Source of the DNA: Acidimicrobiia bacterium
GTDB taxonomy: Bacteria; Actinomycetota; Acidimicrobiia; Spongiisociales; ZC4RG35
Assembly: GCA_965215185.1 (NCBI GenBank)
Contig: OZ244034.1
Coordinates: forward strand, 928,001 to 992,000
Reading direction: 5' to 3'
DNA: 64,000 nucleotides
Positions 40,521-61,014 of this stretch are shown piece by piece; within the stretch, counting starts at the first letter, position 1, and each line of letters opens with the position of its first letter. The notes under the pieces are model-generated. The model searched no databases and was not told the DNA's origin. It saw only the letters and a list, made by a program, of their open reading frames with translations. A program made the position numbers and the translations under genes.

Positions 40521-41681
40521 TCAGATTGCTAAGTAGTCACCCCACTGTTGCATGACGGGAATCCTGTCATTGAATAGGCTGGTCCGGAGGTATGCGTCGT
40601 CTACTCCGTGAGCCAGGGCGTAATCTGCCACTGCGAATCTCACCTTGTGGTCGGCGGCCCAGTCCATGAAGGATGATCGCATCCCATGTACAGTGGCGTC
40701 TATTCCGTTGTCCCGGAGCAGTTTGAGGAGGCTGCCGGAGTGCATGACCTTTTCTCTGGGCGAGGGGAACACCAGTCCTGTGAGGTTTCCTGTGAGTTCT
40801 TTTGTGAGTTGGGCGGTTTCCTTGAGGACCTGCTTGGCTTGCTTGCTGAGCGGCACCAGATGCGATTGGTCACCCTTGGTGTTGTGGTCCGGTATGGTCC
40901 AAACAGCCTTTAGTAGGTCGATTTGGTCCCATGTGGCTTTTCGGACCTCGCCGCTGCGGGCTGCTGTCAGGGTGAGGAACTTCAGGGCGTTGACAGCTCT
41001 CGGGTAGGCCCCGGAGGCTTCAACGATTCTGATAGCGTCCCCGACCTGGCCGTGGGGAAGGGCTTTGTGGTGTTTCGTACTGTGTTTGATCTTTGGTAGG
41101 TAACTGACGGTTTTAGGGGTCGGGTCGGAATCGATGAAGCCGTTTCCTATCGCCCATTTCATGACGGCGCTGATCCGGTTCACTAGGTCTTGAGCTGTTG
41201 GATGTTTGGACACCCATATGCTGGCAAAGACTTCGAATAGGTCTTGGTGGGTGATATTGTCGATCGGCTTGTTCCCAATGTGGGGAAACACATGGTTTTC
41301 GAAGCTGTTTTCCCAGTCCTGGCGACTTCGGCTTCCCTCCCGCCAGAAGGGGGAGCGATACTCGATGTAGTCGGCGACTACTTTCCGAAAGATGGGCGGT
41401 CCCGCGGCTGCTGGGTCGCGGTCTTCTTGGACGGCCTGTTGGTAGGCGAGTGCCTTTCGGCGGGCTTCGGCCAGTGTGACTTTGGCGTAGCTGCCCAGCC
41501 CGCGGTTGGTGTATTTGCCGTTGATACGGAGGCGGACGCTCCACGTTTTTGATAGCAGGCCCGGGGTTTTGGTTTCTTTGACTAGGAGGCTCAAACCGTT
41601 ACCGCCCGGACCGTCTGAGTATCGGCCGGGTGGTAGGACGGTTCTTATGGACGTGTCAGCTATTCTTTTCGGTCTTGCCAT
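40521..41681 (-). CDS. P4-type tyrosine integrase, apparently intact
   Basis: Arm domain GLGSY..VTLAEAR; catalytic R(SGE), K, HGMR, LAH, AY. Confidence 0.92.
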   Translation of the reverse strand: MARPKRIADTSIRTVLPPGRYSDGPGGNGLSLLVKETKTPGLLSKTWSVRLRINGKYTNRGLGSYAKVTLAEARRKALAYQQAVQEDRDPAAAGPPIFRKVVADYIEYRSPFWREGSRSRQDWENSFENHVFPHIGNKPIDNITHQDLFEVFASIWVSKHPTAQDLVNRISAVMKWAIGNGFIDSDPTPKTVSYLPKIKHSTKHHKALPHGQVGDAIRIVEASGAYPRAVNALKFLTLTAARSGEVRKATWDQIDLLKAVWTIPDHNTKGDQSHLVPLSKQAKQVLKETAQLTKELTGNLTGLVFPSPREKVMHSGSLLKLLRDNGIDATVHGMRSSFMDWAADHKVRFAVADYALAHGVDDAYLRTSLFNDRIPVMQQWGDYLAI

Positions 41682-53178: not shown

Positions 53179-54110
53179 TGTCCTTCCCATGGACGTGGTT
53201 GACAGAATGCTTGGATGAGTGAGGGCCTCCTGGTTTGATTCGTGGGATAAGCAACAGTCCTCGAATCAAAAGGAGGCCCTCGTGAGAACCAACTGTAGAA
53301 AGTTGACACCGTTCGGGCGTAGGTTGTTGGTGGATCGGATCCTCGAGTTGGGTTGGCCGGCGGCTCGGGCCGCTGAATCGGTGGGAGTGTCTCGGCAGAC
53401 TGCCTATCGGTGGATGAGACGCTGGCGGGAGGAAGGAGAGGCCGGACTGGAGGATCGCTCCAGCAGGCCTCACCACAGTCCCAATCGGGTCTCTTCTGAG
53501 ATGGAAAAGCGGATCGTTTCGGATCGGATCACAGAGAAGGAAGGCCCCCATCTGATGGCCGGACGGCTGGGTGTACCGCGGTCGACCATCTACGGGGTGC
53601 TCGCCCGCCGGGGACTGTCCCGCCTCTCCGACTTGGACCGGACCACCGGCACACCGATCCGCTATGTGCGAGACTGCCCAGGTGAACTGGTCCACGTGGA
53701 CATCAAGAAACTGGGCAAAATACCTGATGGAGGCGGGTGGCGGGTCCTGGGCCGGTCTCGGGCTAATCCCCGTCAAAAGGTCGGATATGAGTATGTGCAC
53801 TCCATGGTCGATGACCACACCCCAATGGCCTACTCAGAAGCCCTCGACTCCCAGGACGGCCCAACCTGCGCCGGGTTCATGCTCCGCGCCGCCCACTGGT
53901 TCGCCACCTACGGGTATCGCATAGACCGAGTAATGACCGACAACGCCATGGCCTACCGCCGAAGCCGACCCTTCGCCGATGCCCTCGCCCAGATCGGCGC
54001 CGCTCACAAACTGATCCGACCCTACCGACCCCAAACCAACGGGAAAGTGGAACGCTTCCACCAAACCCTCCTCGGAGGATGGGCCTACAAACAACCCTAT
54101 ACCACCAACC
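53179..54110 (+). mobile_element. IS481-family element (transposase from GTG 53282), 3'-truncated by an IS110-A-type left end
   Basis: IR TGTCCTTCCCATGGACGTGGTTGACA; PGELVHVDIKKLG, TDNA, PQTNGKVERF; hairpin 53221-53281 covers the RBS. Confidence 0.9.
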
Positions 54111-54125
54111 ACTCATACTTGTAGG

Positions 54126-54262: not shown

Positions 54263-54430
54263 TCATTTGCCTAAGTAGCGGCTCCATTGTTCCATTATTT
54301 CGCGGCGTCGTTCCAGGAGGTCGGTTCGGGCGTTGGCCTTTTCTACCGCTTTTAGGATTTCGTGACCGAGGGCCTGTTCCGCCACTTCGCGGCTGATCCC
54401 TGTTTCACGACACCAATCCCGAAACGAGCT
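54263..54430 (-). pseudogene. P4-type integrase C-terminal remnant
   Basis: SSFRDWC...ALGH...ARTDLLERRR. Confidence 0.85.
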
Positions 54431-56065
54431 TACGCATGTGGCGGGCACCTCGTGGACGGACGGTTGATGTCCGATCTCACCGGGGGGAAGGTAGCGAGAG
54501 CCTTTTCGCTGTCAAGCGTTCCCCGACAATCCAGTTGGGCAACCCCGGCTACTACCGGCAAGACGAGAAGTTGCTGGTTTGGGATTTGAAAGGAGTGTGC
54601 CCTGGCTGACGAACCGCGGGTCGAGGAACGGCGGAATGGCCCGGCGGATCTAGGGAGGCAAAGGGGAAACGACACCGGAGAAGCCCACACACATCCTCTG
54701 CGGGGGGATAGGCGAAGTTGCCTACACAGGCGTATTCGTCAGAGAGAAGGTCCAGATTTTCTACCTCTACGGAGACAACTGCCTGATCTTCTGCGCAGCG
54801 ATAGCGCCCCGCAACTAGCCGACAGCCAACAACACCTACTCCATGTACCCGCCTGAATCGCGCCGGGTTTCAGTTTGTCCCAATCGGTGCCATGGAAAGG
54901 GTTTGCCCCTTCAGATGTGTAGGTAGCGGTTCCAGTGTTCCATTAGTTGGCGGCGTTGTTCTAGCAGGTCGGTTCGGGCGTAGGCTTTTTCTACAGCGTT
55001 TCGGATTTCGTGTCCGAGGGCCCGTTCGGCGACTTCCCGGTTTACGCCTGTTTCTCCGCACCAGTCTCGAAACGAGCTTCTCATCCCGTGTGGCACACAA
55101 CCCACCTGGTTCTCCTTGCAAAGTTTGCTCATAGTGGCATTGCTCATTGTCCGTCCGGTGGGGGATGGGAAGATCAAACCAGTGCTGGTTGATGTTTGGC
55201 GTGCGGTGAAGAGAACCTTTAGTGCCCCGGTGCTGAGCGGAACCCGGTGTTTTGTCCGGTTTTGGTGTGTTCTGGGGGGATTGTCCAGGTTGCTGTGGCA
55301 AGGTTAATCTCGTCCCATGTGGCGTTTCTGACCTCCCCGCTACGGGTGGCGGTGAGGGTGAGGAATGTGAAAGCGGCGATGGTAGCCCAGTGAGCGTCGG
55401 TGGTTTCGACAGTCCGTATTGCCGTGGCGACTTGGCTGTGGTGGAGGGCTTTCATGTGTTGGGGTCGTTGGGTGTTGGAGCCCAGGGCGGCGGTGATACG
55501 GTCGTCGGCTGGGTTGTTCTCTCGGAACCCCTGGGCGATGCACCATTTCATGACCGCGGCGATCCGTTGTTTGACGCGGCGGGCCGTTTCGGGTGTTGTG
55601 TGCCATATGGGGGTGAGGCAGGCCATGACATTGGCTGTGGTGATTTGGTCCACCCGTTTTTTCCCAAGGTGAGGATAGGCGTAGGTGTGGAGGGTTGACC
55701 GCCAGTGTTCTTCGGACCTGCCGCCAGGTTTCCATTTGGCGGCGTGAAGCTGGATTACTTGTTCGGTGGCCTGGCGAAAGGTGGGTGCTTTGCGGGGGCG
55801 GGGGTTGCGGCCTTCTGCGATGGCTTGGCGGTTTCGGAGAGCCCGCCGGCGGGCTTCGGCGAGGGTGACTGCTGGGTAGCTACCCAGGCCCAGGTTGGTG
55901 TATCTGCCGTTGATCTGGTTTCGTTGTGCCCAGGTTTTGGAGAGTCGCCCCTGGATTTTGGTTGGTTTGACCAACAGAGAAAGTCCATGGCCGCCTCGGC
56001 CGTCGCCATAGCGTCCGGGTTGGGTCACTGTTCTAACGAAAGATGCTGTGAGTGTTGGTGAGCTC

Positions 56066-57094
56066 CTATGTCAAAATCGGGGTTGGTTTTGGTGGTTGGA
56101 GGTGGGTCCAGATGCGGTCTGAGATTCGGCGTTTGAGGACGCGTATGGCGTCTCTGTGGGTCTTTCCTCGGGTGATGAGTTTCTGGTAGTAGCGGCGGCC
56201 TTCGCTGTCTGCGCGGGCGATCTGGGTCAAAGCGGCGGTGTGGATGGCCCGGTTTAGTTGGCGGTTCCCACCCCGGTTGAGTCGATGGCGTACTACTCGT
56301 CCGCTGCTGGCTTCGATGGGTGCGGTGCCGTTGGCCATGGCGAACTTGTCTTTGGTCGCATAGCGGTGTGGGTTGCCCACCTCCGAAAGGATGGTGGCAG
56401 CGACCAGTACACCCACCCCGTGAATGTCTAGTAGACGGGTTTCGGATTGGTCGACCAGTGTTTTGATCTCGGCGGTGAGTTGTTTGATCTCGGTGTCCAG
56501 TTGTCGCAGTCTTCGGATGCGTTGTTTGGCTACCCGCCCGTGGGGGGTGGTGTCCCGCCAACACAGTTTCATGGCCTGGTCGAGGGCTTTTCGGGTGGTG
56601 AGCCGGGGAATGTTCTGGTGGTAGCCTGGTCGGAGTTTCCCCAGGTCGGCGTGGAGCCGGTTGGCCTGGGCGGTGCGGTCTTCTACCAGTTCACGGCGGT
56701 ATGAGACCAGCACACGGAGGTCTTCGGTGTCCTCCCAAAACGTCGGCGGGGCGAGCGTGTTGTCTCGGAGAGCGACCCTGGCGATCACCCAAGCGTCGAC
56801 CTGGTCGGTTTTGGTCTGGGTACGGCCCCGGCGCCGGACCTGGGCGGTCAGCTGCGGTGGAACCTCCCGGATGTCCAGACCAGCGGCCATAGCGGCGACC
56901 GCGGCTGGGCGGCCGAACGTGCCGGACCCCTCGACCGCTACCCTGGCGGCGTTGGTGGTGTGAGCCCAATCTATGAGTTGACGGTGACCAGTAGGGGTGT
57001 TAGCGATGGTCCGGTACTCCAGGGCGGTGCCCAGGTGGTCTACCAAACAGGCAGAAAGGGTATCCTTGTGCGAGTCGATCCCGATAACGAACAT
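56066..57094 (-). CDS. IS110-family DEDD recombinase
   Basis: GIDSH, VEGSG, KTDQVDA, SSG, HRLNRGGNRQLN. Confidence 0.95.
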   Translation of the reverse strand: MFVIGIDSHKDTLSACLVDHLGTALEYRTIANTPTGHRQLIDWAHTTNAARVAVEGSGTFGRPAAVAAMAAGLDIREVPPQLTAQVRRRGRTQTKTDQVDAWVIARVALRDNTLAPPTFWEDTEDLRVLVSYRRELVEDRTAQANRLHADLGKLRPGYHQNIPRLTTRKALDQAMKLCWRDTTPHGRVAKQRIRRLRQLDTEIKQLTAEIKTLVDQSETRLLDIHGVGVLVAATILSEVGNPHRYATKDKFAMANGTAPIEASSGRVVRHRLNRGGNRQLNRAIHTAALTQIARADSEGRRYYQKLITRGKTHRDAIRVLKRRISDRIWTHLQPPKPTPILT

Positions 57095-57119
57095 GGTTCA
57101 ATCCTCCAATTTCGGGGGT

Positions 57120-57305
57120 TTGCGGGAGCGGCAGAAGGCTCGGCGAAGCGCATCCATGCGTCGAAACAACACCCCCACAGGGGGCAGATACAAGTCACGC
57201 TCCTATCAAGCGACAACACCGAGCGGGCAACCGGTGGGGAGACACTCACTAACTAAGCCACCACAATGGGGCAGGGTCGTTTGGAGTCATCCCCACCGGC
57301 ACTGC
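57120..57305 (-). ncRNA. Predicted bridge RNA of IS110-C (ends approximate)
   Basis: 10-bp stem CCGGUGGGGA/UCCCCACCGG encloses AAACGACC (57282-57275) and GUUAGUG (57253-57247); donor guides AUAGGAGC (57206-57199) and ACGCAUG (57161-57155). Confidence 0.85.
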
Positions 57306-57511
57306 CACACCCCAACATATAACACGCATGGTCGTTTCACCCCTGCTTCTCCCTGTCCGCCAATCCAGAGAAGGTCCGGTACCGCCGACTATTTCTAGTG
57401 TGGGTTACTTCGATAGTTATCAACATTGCAATGCGATTAGGTGCAACCCCGTGAGACTGTCTGGAACTACCTAGGACACCAATACCCTGTTGACCTGGGC
57501 AAATATGAACC

Positions 57512-57566
57512 ATATGGGACACTATGCGCCTATATGGGACACTAAACCCGCGGACGTCACCTCCAC
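57512..57566 (+). repeat. ATATGGGACACTA x2 (integrase arm-type sites) and 17-bp direct repeat copy 2
   Basis: 57512-57524 and 57532-57544 are identical; GCGGACGTCACCTCCAC at 57550-57566. Confidence 0.6.
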
Positions 57567-57865
57567 TGCACCCTCACCCGCCTGGAAACACCGTAGAAAA
57601 GCAGTGACAGCCTTCCCCTGACAGGACGGTGACTGTTTGGCGGTCTGCGACGAATGTGCCAGGCGGAATGTCTGAGTGCGGTAGAATACGTAATGTGCAG
57701 ATCGGAGTCCGAATTGCCTGTTTGGAGCAGAACAACCATGAACACCGCGCTCGGGGGGATTGGACCCGGCGGTCTGCCGTACCGTTCATCCTATCCCGGG
57801 AGAAGTGTGGGACGGATTGTGGGACGAATGGGCGAATTTGGCCATCTACCTGGTTAAAGACGGGG

Positions 57866-57909
57866 TCTCATAGTCCGTTGGTTGCAGGTTCGAGTCCTGC
57901 CGGGCCCAC
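57866..57909 (+). mobile_element. tRNA 3'-half fragment (CAT anticodon loop), att core
   Basis: TCTCATAGTCCGTTGGTT GCAGG TTCGAGT CCTGC CGGGCCCAC, preceded by TGTGGGACG x2. Confidence 0.78.
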
Positions 57910-58084
57910 ACCGTTCCACCTCGTTCCGTGGGGTTTCACGCATTGCTAAACGCCCAGGTCAGAGGCCCCATTTGCATTCACAGTGGCACTGACATCCCCC
58001 GCATATGGCGTTGCTGAATTCCCAAGTTGTTTCTGGTAGTTTCATCTCATTGTGGGGCAGCATGGAACAGAATAGGGGGCAGAA

Positions 58085-58237
58085 ATGCCGAAAATGACAG
58101 CAGTGGGTGTCCGCTCAGCCAAACCAGGTTCACATAGTGACGGCAACGGACTCATTCTGAGAGTCTCGCCTACCGGAGCAAAACGATGGATGTGGAGAGG
58201 GACAATCCAAGGAAAACGACGAGACTTGGGCCTCGGG
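58085..58237 (+). pseudogene. P4-type integrase N-terminal (arm-binding) remnant
   Basis: MPKMTAVGVRSAKPG..DGNGLILRV...KRW...GKRRDLGLG. Confidence 0.85.
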
Positions 58238-58379
58238 TTGTCAGCCCGTTGGCGACATTGGATGGGATGGCCGGGCGCGGAGTGGGGGTGGGTGGCTGTT
58301 CGCTGTCTAGTTAGTTTTCGTCGTTGTTGAAGTTGTTGGGTTGACGTAGGTTGTGCGCGATTAGCAGAGCGAGCAGTCT

Positions 58380-60594: not shown

Positions 60595-60817
60595 GGCCTC
60601 CGTCCTGCCGCGGTCCCATCTCTTTCGGGAGCCCCGGCACCACTCTCTCCTGTTTCCCACCGTTTCCTGATGTTTCAGGAAGTACCAAAAGTGCAGGTAG
60701 ATCACCGTTTTGCTCGGTCGTGTGAGCAGTAGGGGGCCAGCCCTGCTCCCGTTTCTCGACGTTTCAAGCTGTTCCTAGTCATCTCGTTTTCTGTGGGACG
60801 GAATTGGAGGGTGAGGG

Positions 60818-61012
60818 ATGCCGAAACTGACTGCTGCGGGTGTGCGCTCCGCCAATCCAGGATCACACCGCGACGGAAACGGACCTCATTCTGAGGGCCT
60901 TTCCCACGGGAGCAAACGGTGGGCATGGAGAGGAACCGTACGAGGAAGACGACGGGATTTTGGCCTTTGCTCTTATCCGACGGTTTCGCTCAATGGGGCC
61001 AGAACGAAGGCG
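60818..61012 (+). pseudogene. P4-type integrase N-terminal remnant
   Basis: MPKLTAAGVRSANPG...KRWAW...RRRDFGLCSYPTVSL. Confidence 0.8.
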
Positions 61013-61014
61013 TC

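Follow-up and report, generated by a model that had tools for sequence, protein, structure and literature searches.

In the 64,000-nt window that we analysed (contig OZ244034.1 of an Acidimicrobiia bacterium, positions 928,001 to 992,000), codon 4 of a P4-type tyrosine integrase gene is interrupted by an insertion sequence (IS) of the IS110 family, which we call IS-C. Judged from its letters, IS-C is very probably a functional-looking and recently mobile element, the DEDD/serine recombinase of which would be guided by a bridge RNA. This reading is carried by the anatomy of the element, the matches of its guides, the covariation of guides and flanks among relatives, the identity of its copies and the presence of empty paralogous sites. 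The coordinates of all features are collected in Table 1, and positions are those of the window unless they are assigned to the genome.

The borders of IS-C were read directly from its two joints, which have the form GTGAAACGAC-CA-TGCGTG on the left and GGAGCT-CA-CCAACACTC on the right. Written out on the minus strand, positions 57340-57316 read ...GGG GTG AAA CGA C-CA-TGCGTGTTATATG... and positions 56071-56026 read ...GACATAGGAGCT-CA-CCAACACTCACAGCATCTTTCGTTAGAACAGTG... Since CA is the sole dinucleotide common to both joints, the element comprises 1270 bp with one core. CA is found at both joints in all 13 full-length copies that could be aligned. Only 5 nt separate the stop codon of the recombinase gene from the right-hand core, and no terminal or subterminal inverted repeats linking the two ends of the element were found. 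In-silico loss of the 1270 bp resulted in the sequence GTG AAA CGA CCA CCA ACA CTC ACA..., and an uninterrupted paralogue in the same genome (genome positions 896,967-896,985; GTGAGACGACCACCAACAC) reads across the joint (GTGAGACGACCACCAACACTCACAGCATCTTTCGTTAGAACAGTG) with CA present once. In addition, the integrase piece that follows the IS aligns at its own residue 8 with residue 12 of the integrase at 40524-41681 (48% identity over 263 amino acids), an offset consistent with four codons preceding the IS. Contigs from two public runs, X1 and X7, joined position 56058 to 57329 and skipped exactly 1270 bases with two ambiguous letters, the shorter side of the joint being 25 letters in X1 and 92 letters in X7 (one contig each). 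These contigs show that the empty form exists as DNA, not that the element is excised. In the public runs X5 and X19 the joint was not found, where uncovered parts carry no meaning. Together, the joints, the restored frame and the paralogue bore out the original prediction of an intact element of the IS110 type whose CA core lies in integrase codon 4, and the empty paralogue, the residue numbering and the public contigs supported the restored frame GTG AAA CGA CCA CCA ACA CTC as it had first been proposed.

The recombinase of IS-C was also predicted to be intact with its DEDD and SSG motifs, which was confirmed by a frame of 342 amino acids without stops and by the alignment of its catalytic residues with those of IS621 from Escherichia coli. 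Profile searches matched the N-terminal RuvC-like DEDD part to PF01548 (E 6.2e-31) and the C-terminal Tnp part to PF02371 (E 1.8e-20). Furthermore, the NCBIfam equivalog NF033542, 'IS110 family RNA-guided transposase', was matched with 210.8 bits at a cut-off of 140. The closest solved relative was IS621 (chain 8wt6_A, E 9e-20, two aligned stretches), followed by the ISCro4 transposase (chain 9t56_A of PDB 9t56, E 3.2e-17), the likeness to which was gauged by search score. In the alignment, residues D7, E55, D97, D100, S264 and G265 correspond to D11, E60, D102, D105, S241 and G242 of IS621, where the numbering of the 8wt6 chain equals the native numbering plus 2. According to passages of Hiraizumi et al. 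(2024, PMC11208158), these positions of IS621 are essential.

Upstream of the recombinase gene lies a non-coding leader of 234 nt, or 236 nt when the core is counted. The 236-nt leader was predicted to fold with a minimum free energy of -97.2 kcal/mol (z -3.17), and none of 200 shuffles was equally stable. The predicted fold consists of an outer stem and two stem-enclosed internal loops with a central hairpin in each, and this layout agrees with the two-loop bridge RNA presented in part of Durrant et al. (PMC11208160). As originally proposed, all four guides were readable in this structure. In loop 1, AAACGACC (57282-57275) agrees in eight of eight positions with the left flank extended by the first core base, and the full 9-nt left target guide matches the left 7 nt plus the core of the window site in 8 of 9. 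The complement of the right target guide GUUAGUG is CACTAAC, which agrees in 6 of 7 positions with the window flank CACCAAC. In loop 2, AUAGGAGC at 57206-57199 is identical to ATAGGAGC at 56069-56062 in the right end (8/8), this match ending one base before the core, and ACGCAUG is complementary to CATGCGT, which represents the core plus the left end (57330-57324; 7/7). The right guides pair with the whole CA, and of the two core bases only the first is paired by the left target guide. Thus, the donor matches of 8/8 and 7/7 proved correct, although the left donor guide leaves the core uncovered and only contacts of the G-U or G-T type are possible there. This incomplete core pairing sets IS-C apart from IS621 on a point of detail and does not place it outside the IS110 family. 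The bases that follow the right guides, as read here from the letters, would show the pattern of the 'handshake guides' of IS621, a concept introduced in sections of Hiraizumi et al. (2024, PMC11208158). Specifically, the AG after the right target guide is complementary to the CT located before the core in the right end, whereas the AC at the equivalent position of the target does not fit it. All 21 target sites of the set described below have a C immediately before the core, to which the G after the right donor guide corresponds.

Conceivably, the leader could represent only a 5′ untranslated or promoter region, with the protein picking the target and the four apparent guides matching by coincidence. 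Taken singly, the matches are not extreme, as they were reached in 25 (left target), 182 (right target), 68 (left donor) and 139 (right donor) of 5000 mononucleotide shuffles of the leader, and no Rfam family matches the leader. However, all four matches together were not reached in any of the 5000 shuffles, and they lie on the predicted sides of the two internal loops. Moreover, guides and flanks change together among relatives while the scaffold stays constant, as shown in the following. We therefore regard coincidence as extremely improbable. A further complementarity, between GUGAGUGU in the RNA (57243-57250, the final part of the right guide and the adjoining stem of loop 1) and the flank ACACTCAC (56045-56052), was set aside as probably due to chance. 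This pairing comprises 8 nt at 4-11 nt past the core, a length reached in 182 of 5000 shuffles, and it is absent at the third copy of the element in the genome. An Rfam match to serC within 55900-57500 was likewise attributed to chance, as it scored 17.3 bits against a gathering score of 35.

Relatives of IS-C were detected by DNA search in 10 of the 16 other genomes of the genus and in none of 44 genomes of other genera, and by protein search (E <= 1e-80) in 8 of the 16 genomes of the genus and in none of 184 others of the family. For the analysis of covariation, we drew on 21 copies in 10 genomes of the genus; the left joint was readable in every copy, and the right joint could not be read in four of the copies. 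This set consisted of ten full-length copies at 84-94% identity and others that are more distant (57-65% identity at the protein or DNA level), and it comprised 19 different guide/site pairs, in which 14 different left guides occur. Among the relatives, the scaffold and the two donor guides were nearly invariant, whereas the two target guides differed. The left guide matched its own flank at a mean of 7.89 of 9 positions as compared to 4.85 of 9 for cross pairs (n=330), and the non-core part of the right guide matched its own flank at 3.87 of 5 positions as compared to 1.47 of 5 (n=176). In neither case did any of 20,000 permutations reach the observed sum. The right donor guide was found to track the second core base, the pair being AU in 12 sequences and GC in the other 4 (n=16; columns 2 and 207), and in those relatives of the distant clade that have a CG core it reads ACGCACG. 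In three of these relatives, L051, L052 and L059, the right end is ATAGAAGCT-CG and the left donor guide AUAGAAGCUCG equals the right end plus the core; the left donor guide thereby follows a G-to-A change in the right end. Among the copies of the CA-core clade, by comparison, this guide ends one base ahead of the core.

The helices of the scaffold were paired in 90.4% of the cells over 16 relatives, as opposed to 44-56% when the partners were slid. RNAalifold, when applied to the 16 leaders, did not recover the outer stem of loop 2, a gap that was handled by projecting a constrained single-sequence fold and counting its pairs over the relatives. RNAalifold did pair the 5′-terminal CATGCGT with the right donor guide, which we read as complementarity between guide and donor and not as RNA structure.

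The genome carries three copies of IS-C, which are 100% identical over 1272 bp. Two of them, the window copy and a sister copy at 2.65 Mb, occupy the same codon-4 site in the same orientation in paralogous integrase genes. The flanks of these two copies are 87.5% identical over 1189 bp on one side and 92.1% identical over 228 bp on the other, where the homology ends. Identical copies in diverged flanks point to recent insertions and not to a duplicated segment. The third copy, at 1.647 Mb, is located between an Abi_C-domain gene and a nucleotidyltransferase gene, and here the left target guide matches the left 8 nt plus the first core base in 8 of 9 positions and the right target guide matches in 7 of 7. 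This fits guide-directed targeting and not a preference for integrases as such. The question of whether other copies hit integrase starts, which had been raised along with the original prediction, was thus answered favourably: two of the three identical copies do, and the third resides at an unrelated locus. We infer the uninterrupted form of the 1.647-Mb target; an empty orthologue of this site was not found in the 16 same-genus genomes. A CC core instead of CA was rejected, because the right flanks of the third copy and of L037 do not fit it.

The two integrase-borne copies could also be explained by a single insertion into an integrase start, followed by gene conversion or homologous recombination between paralogues, in which case the two apparently independent hits would provide no evidence of targeting. 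Consistent with this, both copies share position and orientation, the first difference between their flanks appears only after about 24 nt on either side, and conversion could draw on the roughly 1.4 kb over which the paralogues are homologous. On the other hand, at a flank identity of 87.5-92.1% a difference is expected every 8-12 nt or so, and about 24 clean nucleotides do not make a clear conversion tract. Conversion cannot explain the third copy at its non-homologous site (8/9 and 7/7), and the guide-flank covariation in the relatives holds regardless of it. Spread by conversion is therefore quite unlikely in our view, and repeated guide-directed insertion remains the preferred explanation.

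The natural specificity of IS-C was assessed from unoccupied sites. When the target was searched for in a 15-nt register, the genome contained no unoccupied site with one mismatch or less (0.15 expected by chance), and in a 14-nt register it contained one unoccupied one-mismatch site, AAACGACCACAAAC, at genome position 776,744. The exact 19-nt integrase start was not found in unoccupied form in any of the 17 genomes of the genus. Unoccupied integrase starts with one change were found six times, of which three are in the source genome, two in G009 and one in G002. Three empty variants of the site in paralogues read AGACGAC-CA-CCAAC, AAACGAC-CA-TCAAC and AAACGAC-CA-GCAAC. That a site is empty does not prove that it is refractory to insertion.

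The 9-nt left guide can be aligned in two ways, namely with 7 flank bases and both core bases or with 8 flank bases and the first core base. At the window site and at the sister copy, the match is 8/9 in the first register and 4/9 in the second, while at the third copy (AAATGACC-CA-CTAAC) these numbers are reversed, with 4/9 in the first and 8/9 in the second. Over the 21 copies, the register of 7 bases plus core was the better one in 8 and that of 8 bases plus the first core base in 13. Among the 18 related copies, 12 pair the left guide one base further out, as the third copy does. Perfect matches (9/9) were observed in both registers, in L035 for the former and in L020, L021, L032 and L037 for the latter. 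The ideal 14-nt target AAACGACCACTAAC of the original prediction is consequently correct as to the left-flank match of 8/8, but it represents only one of two registers, the other being used by the third copy. As a joint reading, one bridge RNA might serve two registers, and the clade may prefer conserved 5′ ends or motifs of the recombinase genes of others; taken together, we consider this a tentative idea on the doubtful side. If it were true, the left guide would tolerate a one-base slip relative to the cleavage point, perhaps aided by its C run, and the use of two registers would matter for off-target prediction of bridge editors. Homing to recombinase genes, an integrase gene here and an IS481-type transposase gene elsewhere, would then amount to a conflict between mobile elements.

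Two of the related copies, L052 and L059, are found in G012 at about locus positions 1272 and 2520. These IS110 copies show 57% protein identity, have a CG core and identical flanks, and sit inside an IS481/rve-type transposase gene, splitting its conserved motif between ...RPYRPQTN and GKVERFHQTL...

By homology with IS621, IS-C would leave its site as a circle, with the right end joined to the left end at a junction (…ATAGGAGCT-CA-TGCGT…) that would probably create a promoter for the leader RNA. This RNA would fold into the two internal loops, and loop 2 would hold the element's own junction via the left donor guide and the right donor guide, after which four recombinase subunits would exchange strands at the CA core. 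In one integrase lineage, codons 1-4 read AAACGAC-CA-CCAAC and fit the guides with one mismatch on each side, and because of this fit the element would have landed there in an orientation set by the guides. This would have happened in a pair of diverged paralogues and a third time at an unrelated site, which also agrees with the guides. Proposed here by analogy are the circle, its promoter, expression of the RNA and catalysis. Inactivation of the integrase is, in any event, a consequence of the guide match and not a demonstrated function.

With respect to expression, the junction of a circle or tandem would place the TTGACA of the right end 17 nt upstream of TATATG in the left end (57321-57316). 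A promoter at this right end-left end (RE-LE) junction is probable by analogy with the RE-LE sigma-70 promoter of IS621, in which, as described in part of PMC11208160, the -35 box likewise lies in the right end. The IS and the integrase gene run in the same direction, and read-through from the integrase promoter could, given this arrangement, also feed the leader of the IS. The single minus-strand 'terminator' that was called in a scan of 55900-57700 turned out to be the inner hairpin of loop 2. In the metatranscriptome (RNA-library) run X19, one 188-nt contig covers the leader only (57082-57265), with three other letters, and derives from a related element. The letters in question are typical of an L018-type relative and are located at 57252, inside the right target guide, at 57254, beside it, and at 57242, a few bases off. 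This contig hints that the leaders of the clade are abundant RNAs; DNA carry-over is possible, and the contig is no proof of transcription.

Several observations weigh against the interpretation of IS-C as a mobile, bridge RNA-guided element. The two registers of the left target guide are not predicted by the IS621 model, and the left donor guide pairs neither with the core nor with the base before it. The second hexamer of the junction promoter is weak, TATATG failing the scan rule for this hexamer, and a strict promoter scan of the integrated element (55900-57700) detected no promoter-like sites. No reads were found that show the right-end/left-end junction of a circle, and an Rfam scan of 55900-57500 (E up to 1) yielded no bridge-RNA family. 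The 1270-base joint in the public contigs may derive from the empty paralogue or its orthologue, and the two integrase copies could stem from one insertion that was spread by gene conversion, as considered above. Lastly, the copies used for the covariation analysis are kin, so that the permutation figures overstate their independence, and compensatory change in the scaffold is modest, with six pairs changed on both sides, a number reached by 77 of 500 shuffles.

IS-C presents every testable feature of the IS110 family, and it departs from IS621 in the details of core pairing and register. As judged from parts of the IS621 reports (PDB 8wt6; PMC11208160, PMC11208158), the two share the domain order and catalytic residues, a leader with two internal loops upstream of the gene, a 2-nt core repeated at both joints and a -35-like hexamer in the right end near the junction. 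They also share two nucleotides after the right target guide that fit the donor and not the target, like handshake guides. The sequence relation to IS621 is nevertheless distant. Furthermore, the core of IS-C is CA and that of IS621 is CT, the left target guide of IS-C leaves the second core base unpaired and uses two registers, and its left donor guide ends short of the core. The natural target of IS-C is the coding start of an integrase gene, its host belongs to an uncultured Acidimicrobiia lineage, and the element is known from sequence alone.

The IS1111 family resembles IS-C in that, according to passages of Siddiquee et al. (2024, PMC11187229), its members are RNA-guided DEDD transposases that target conserved sequences of other mobile elements or repeats. 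The seekRNA-guided examples given there are IS4321 and IS5075 at Tn21 inverted repeats, ISKpn4 and ISPst6 at integron attC sites and ISPa11 at REP sequences. In contrast to IS-C, with its upstream region and lack of such repeats, these elements have a long non-coding region downstream as well as subterminal inverted repeats, and it is the upstream non-coding region and the absence of inverted repeats that separate the IS110 group from IS1111 in the portions of that study concerned with this distinction. Targets inside other mobile elements (Tn21 ends, attC, REP) are thus already known for the wider group from the same portions of PMC11187229. A literature search, limited in extent and therefore no proof that the case is unpublished, did not retrieve any description of an IS110 element inserted at the start of an island integrase. 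IS-C leaves knowledge of the IS110 family unchanged, being a clear but ordinary member, and it contributes two small leads in the form of the two registers and the recombinase-gene targets. It does offer, from an uncultured lineage of actinobacteria, a clean natural example of targeting by a bridge RNA, with identical copies at occupied sites that fit the guides, near-identical sites with one more mismatch left empty, and 14 different left guides on an almost constant scaffold within one genus. For engineers, a CA-core system with an apparent two-register left guide offers testable leads on specificity rules, and for genome biology it is a case of one mobile element disabling the integrase of another.

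The original prediction also held that the IS immobilises an island by knocking out its integrase, and this part was not upheld for the window copy. The interrupted integrase contains all three of its domains (arm-binding N-terminal, central and catalytic). However, it has a second lesion, a 1-nt deletion near 55250 that changes the frame between 55258 and 55249, before the catalytic domain. Accordingly, tblastn placed integrase residues 6-271 and 275-386 in different frames, and alignment against three paralogues revealed a single gap column, 809. Precise loss of the IS would therefore not restore the window integrase, which is dead twice over, through the IS and through the frameshift. Moreover, the gene is surrounded by mobile-element remnants. 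No island borders were definable in this region; similarity to the sister locus extends no further than the gene and 228 bp, and the neighbours are IS copies and integrase fragments. Neither did ARAGORN detect a tRNA in the window, and none lies within 8 kb. An immobilised island is hence an inference without support for the window copy, whereas it is possible for the sister copy at 2.65 Mb, the integrase of which has no stop or indel besides the IS. The genome of 3.1 Mb contains about 20 integrase paralogues or fragments, including the empty paralogue at 0.897 Mb, which has a stop at about residue 175, and an intact paralogue of 386 amino acids at 21 kb.

In a stronger version of this idea, the element would be a weapon of the host or of a mobile element, selected to disable island integrases, with integrase starts as its adaptive target. 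The presence of two of the three copies in integrase starts would agree with this, as would the location of L052 and L059 at a conserved motif of an IS481-like transposase gene, the many integrase paralogues or fragments in the genome and the otherwise undamaged sister integrase. Nonetheless, the third copy and 16 other related copies, that is all but L052 and L059, lack integrase-start flanks, the window integrase carries its independent frameshift, and neither borders nor cargo of an island are definable. Conserved repeats of other mobile elements are, in addition, abundant safe targets, as is known for IS1111/IS110 relatives from parts of PMC11187229. We consider selection as a weapon unlikely and favour targeting set by the guides of IS-C.

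Table 1. Features of IS-C, of the interrupted integrase gene and of their surroundings in the window
Feature	Position	Strand	Remarks
IS-C, IS110-family insertion sequence	56059..57328	minus	1270 bp including one CA core; joints read directly
Left CA core copy	57329..57330	minus	Bases 2-3 of integrase codon 4
Right CA core copy	56059..56060	minus	
Recombinase gene, 342 aa	56066..57094	minus	DEDD RuvC-like domain, coiled coil, Tnp domain with catalytic serine
Left-end non-coding region, predicted bridge RNA	57095..57328	minus	Outer stem, target-binding loop, donor-binding loop
Left target guide AAACGACCC	57274..57282	minus	Loop 1, 5′ side; same sense as top strand, left flank
Right target guide GUUAGUG	57247..57253	minus	Loop 1, 3′ side; complementary to core and right flank
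Putative handshake guide AG	57246-57245	minus	Directly after right target guide
Left donor guide AUAGGAGC(G), = AUAGGAGCG	57198..57206	minus	Loop 2, 5′ side
Right donor guide ACGCAUG	57155..57161	minus	Loop 2, 3′ side; followed by GA at 57154-57153
TTGACA in right end	56069..56074	minus	-35-like hexamer, read by eye
Integrase start GTG AAA CGA C	57331..57340	minus	Codons 1-3 and first base of codon 4
Rest of P4-type tyrosine integrase	54911..56058	minus	PF13356, PF22022, PF00589 on two pieces
Conserved region upstream of integrase lineage	57341..57573	minus	91-92% identical to upstream regions of 0.897-Mb and 2.654-Mb paralogues
Peptide ABC transporter operon	44-50 kb		
Other IS110-family copies	50.2-53.1 kb		
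IS481-type transposase	53.2-54.1 kb		
Integrase 3′ fragment	54.26-54.44 kb		
Integrase 5′ fragment	58.08-58.33 kb	opposite strand	
Metabolic genes	beyond 58.33 kb		

The surroundings of the interrupted integrase gene amount to a pile of recombinase remnants. Between 50236 and 53100, two or three further IS110-family copies of other clades were found, one of them with a partial DEDD domain, and the DEDD transposase domain has 24 matches in the genome as a whole. Directly downstream of the integrase lies an IS481-type transposase (53219-54124; LZ_Tnp_IS481 and rve). An integrase 3′ fragment is found at 54263-54437, and an N-terminal integrase fragment (MPKMTAVGVRSAKPG...) is located on the plus strand at 58085-58330. 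Two further segments, at 57851-58231 and 60649-61013, are 69% and 82% identical, respectively, to the tRNA-Met/integrase-start junction at 858.7 kb (genome positions 858,714-859,174). At least nine integrase paralogues or fragments are present between 859 kb and 989 kb of the genome, a region that may represent a long tandem accretion of islands seeded at tRNA-Met.

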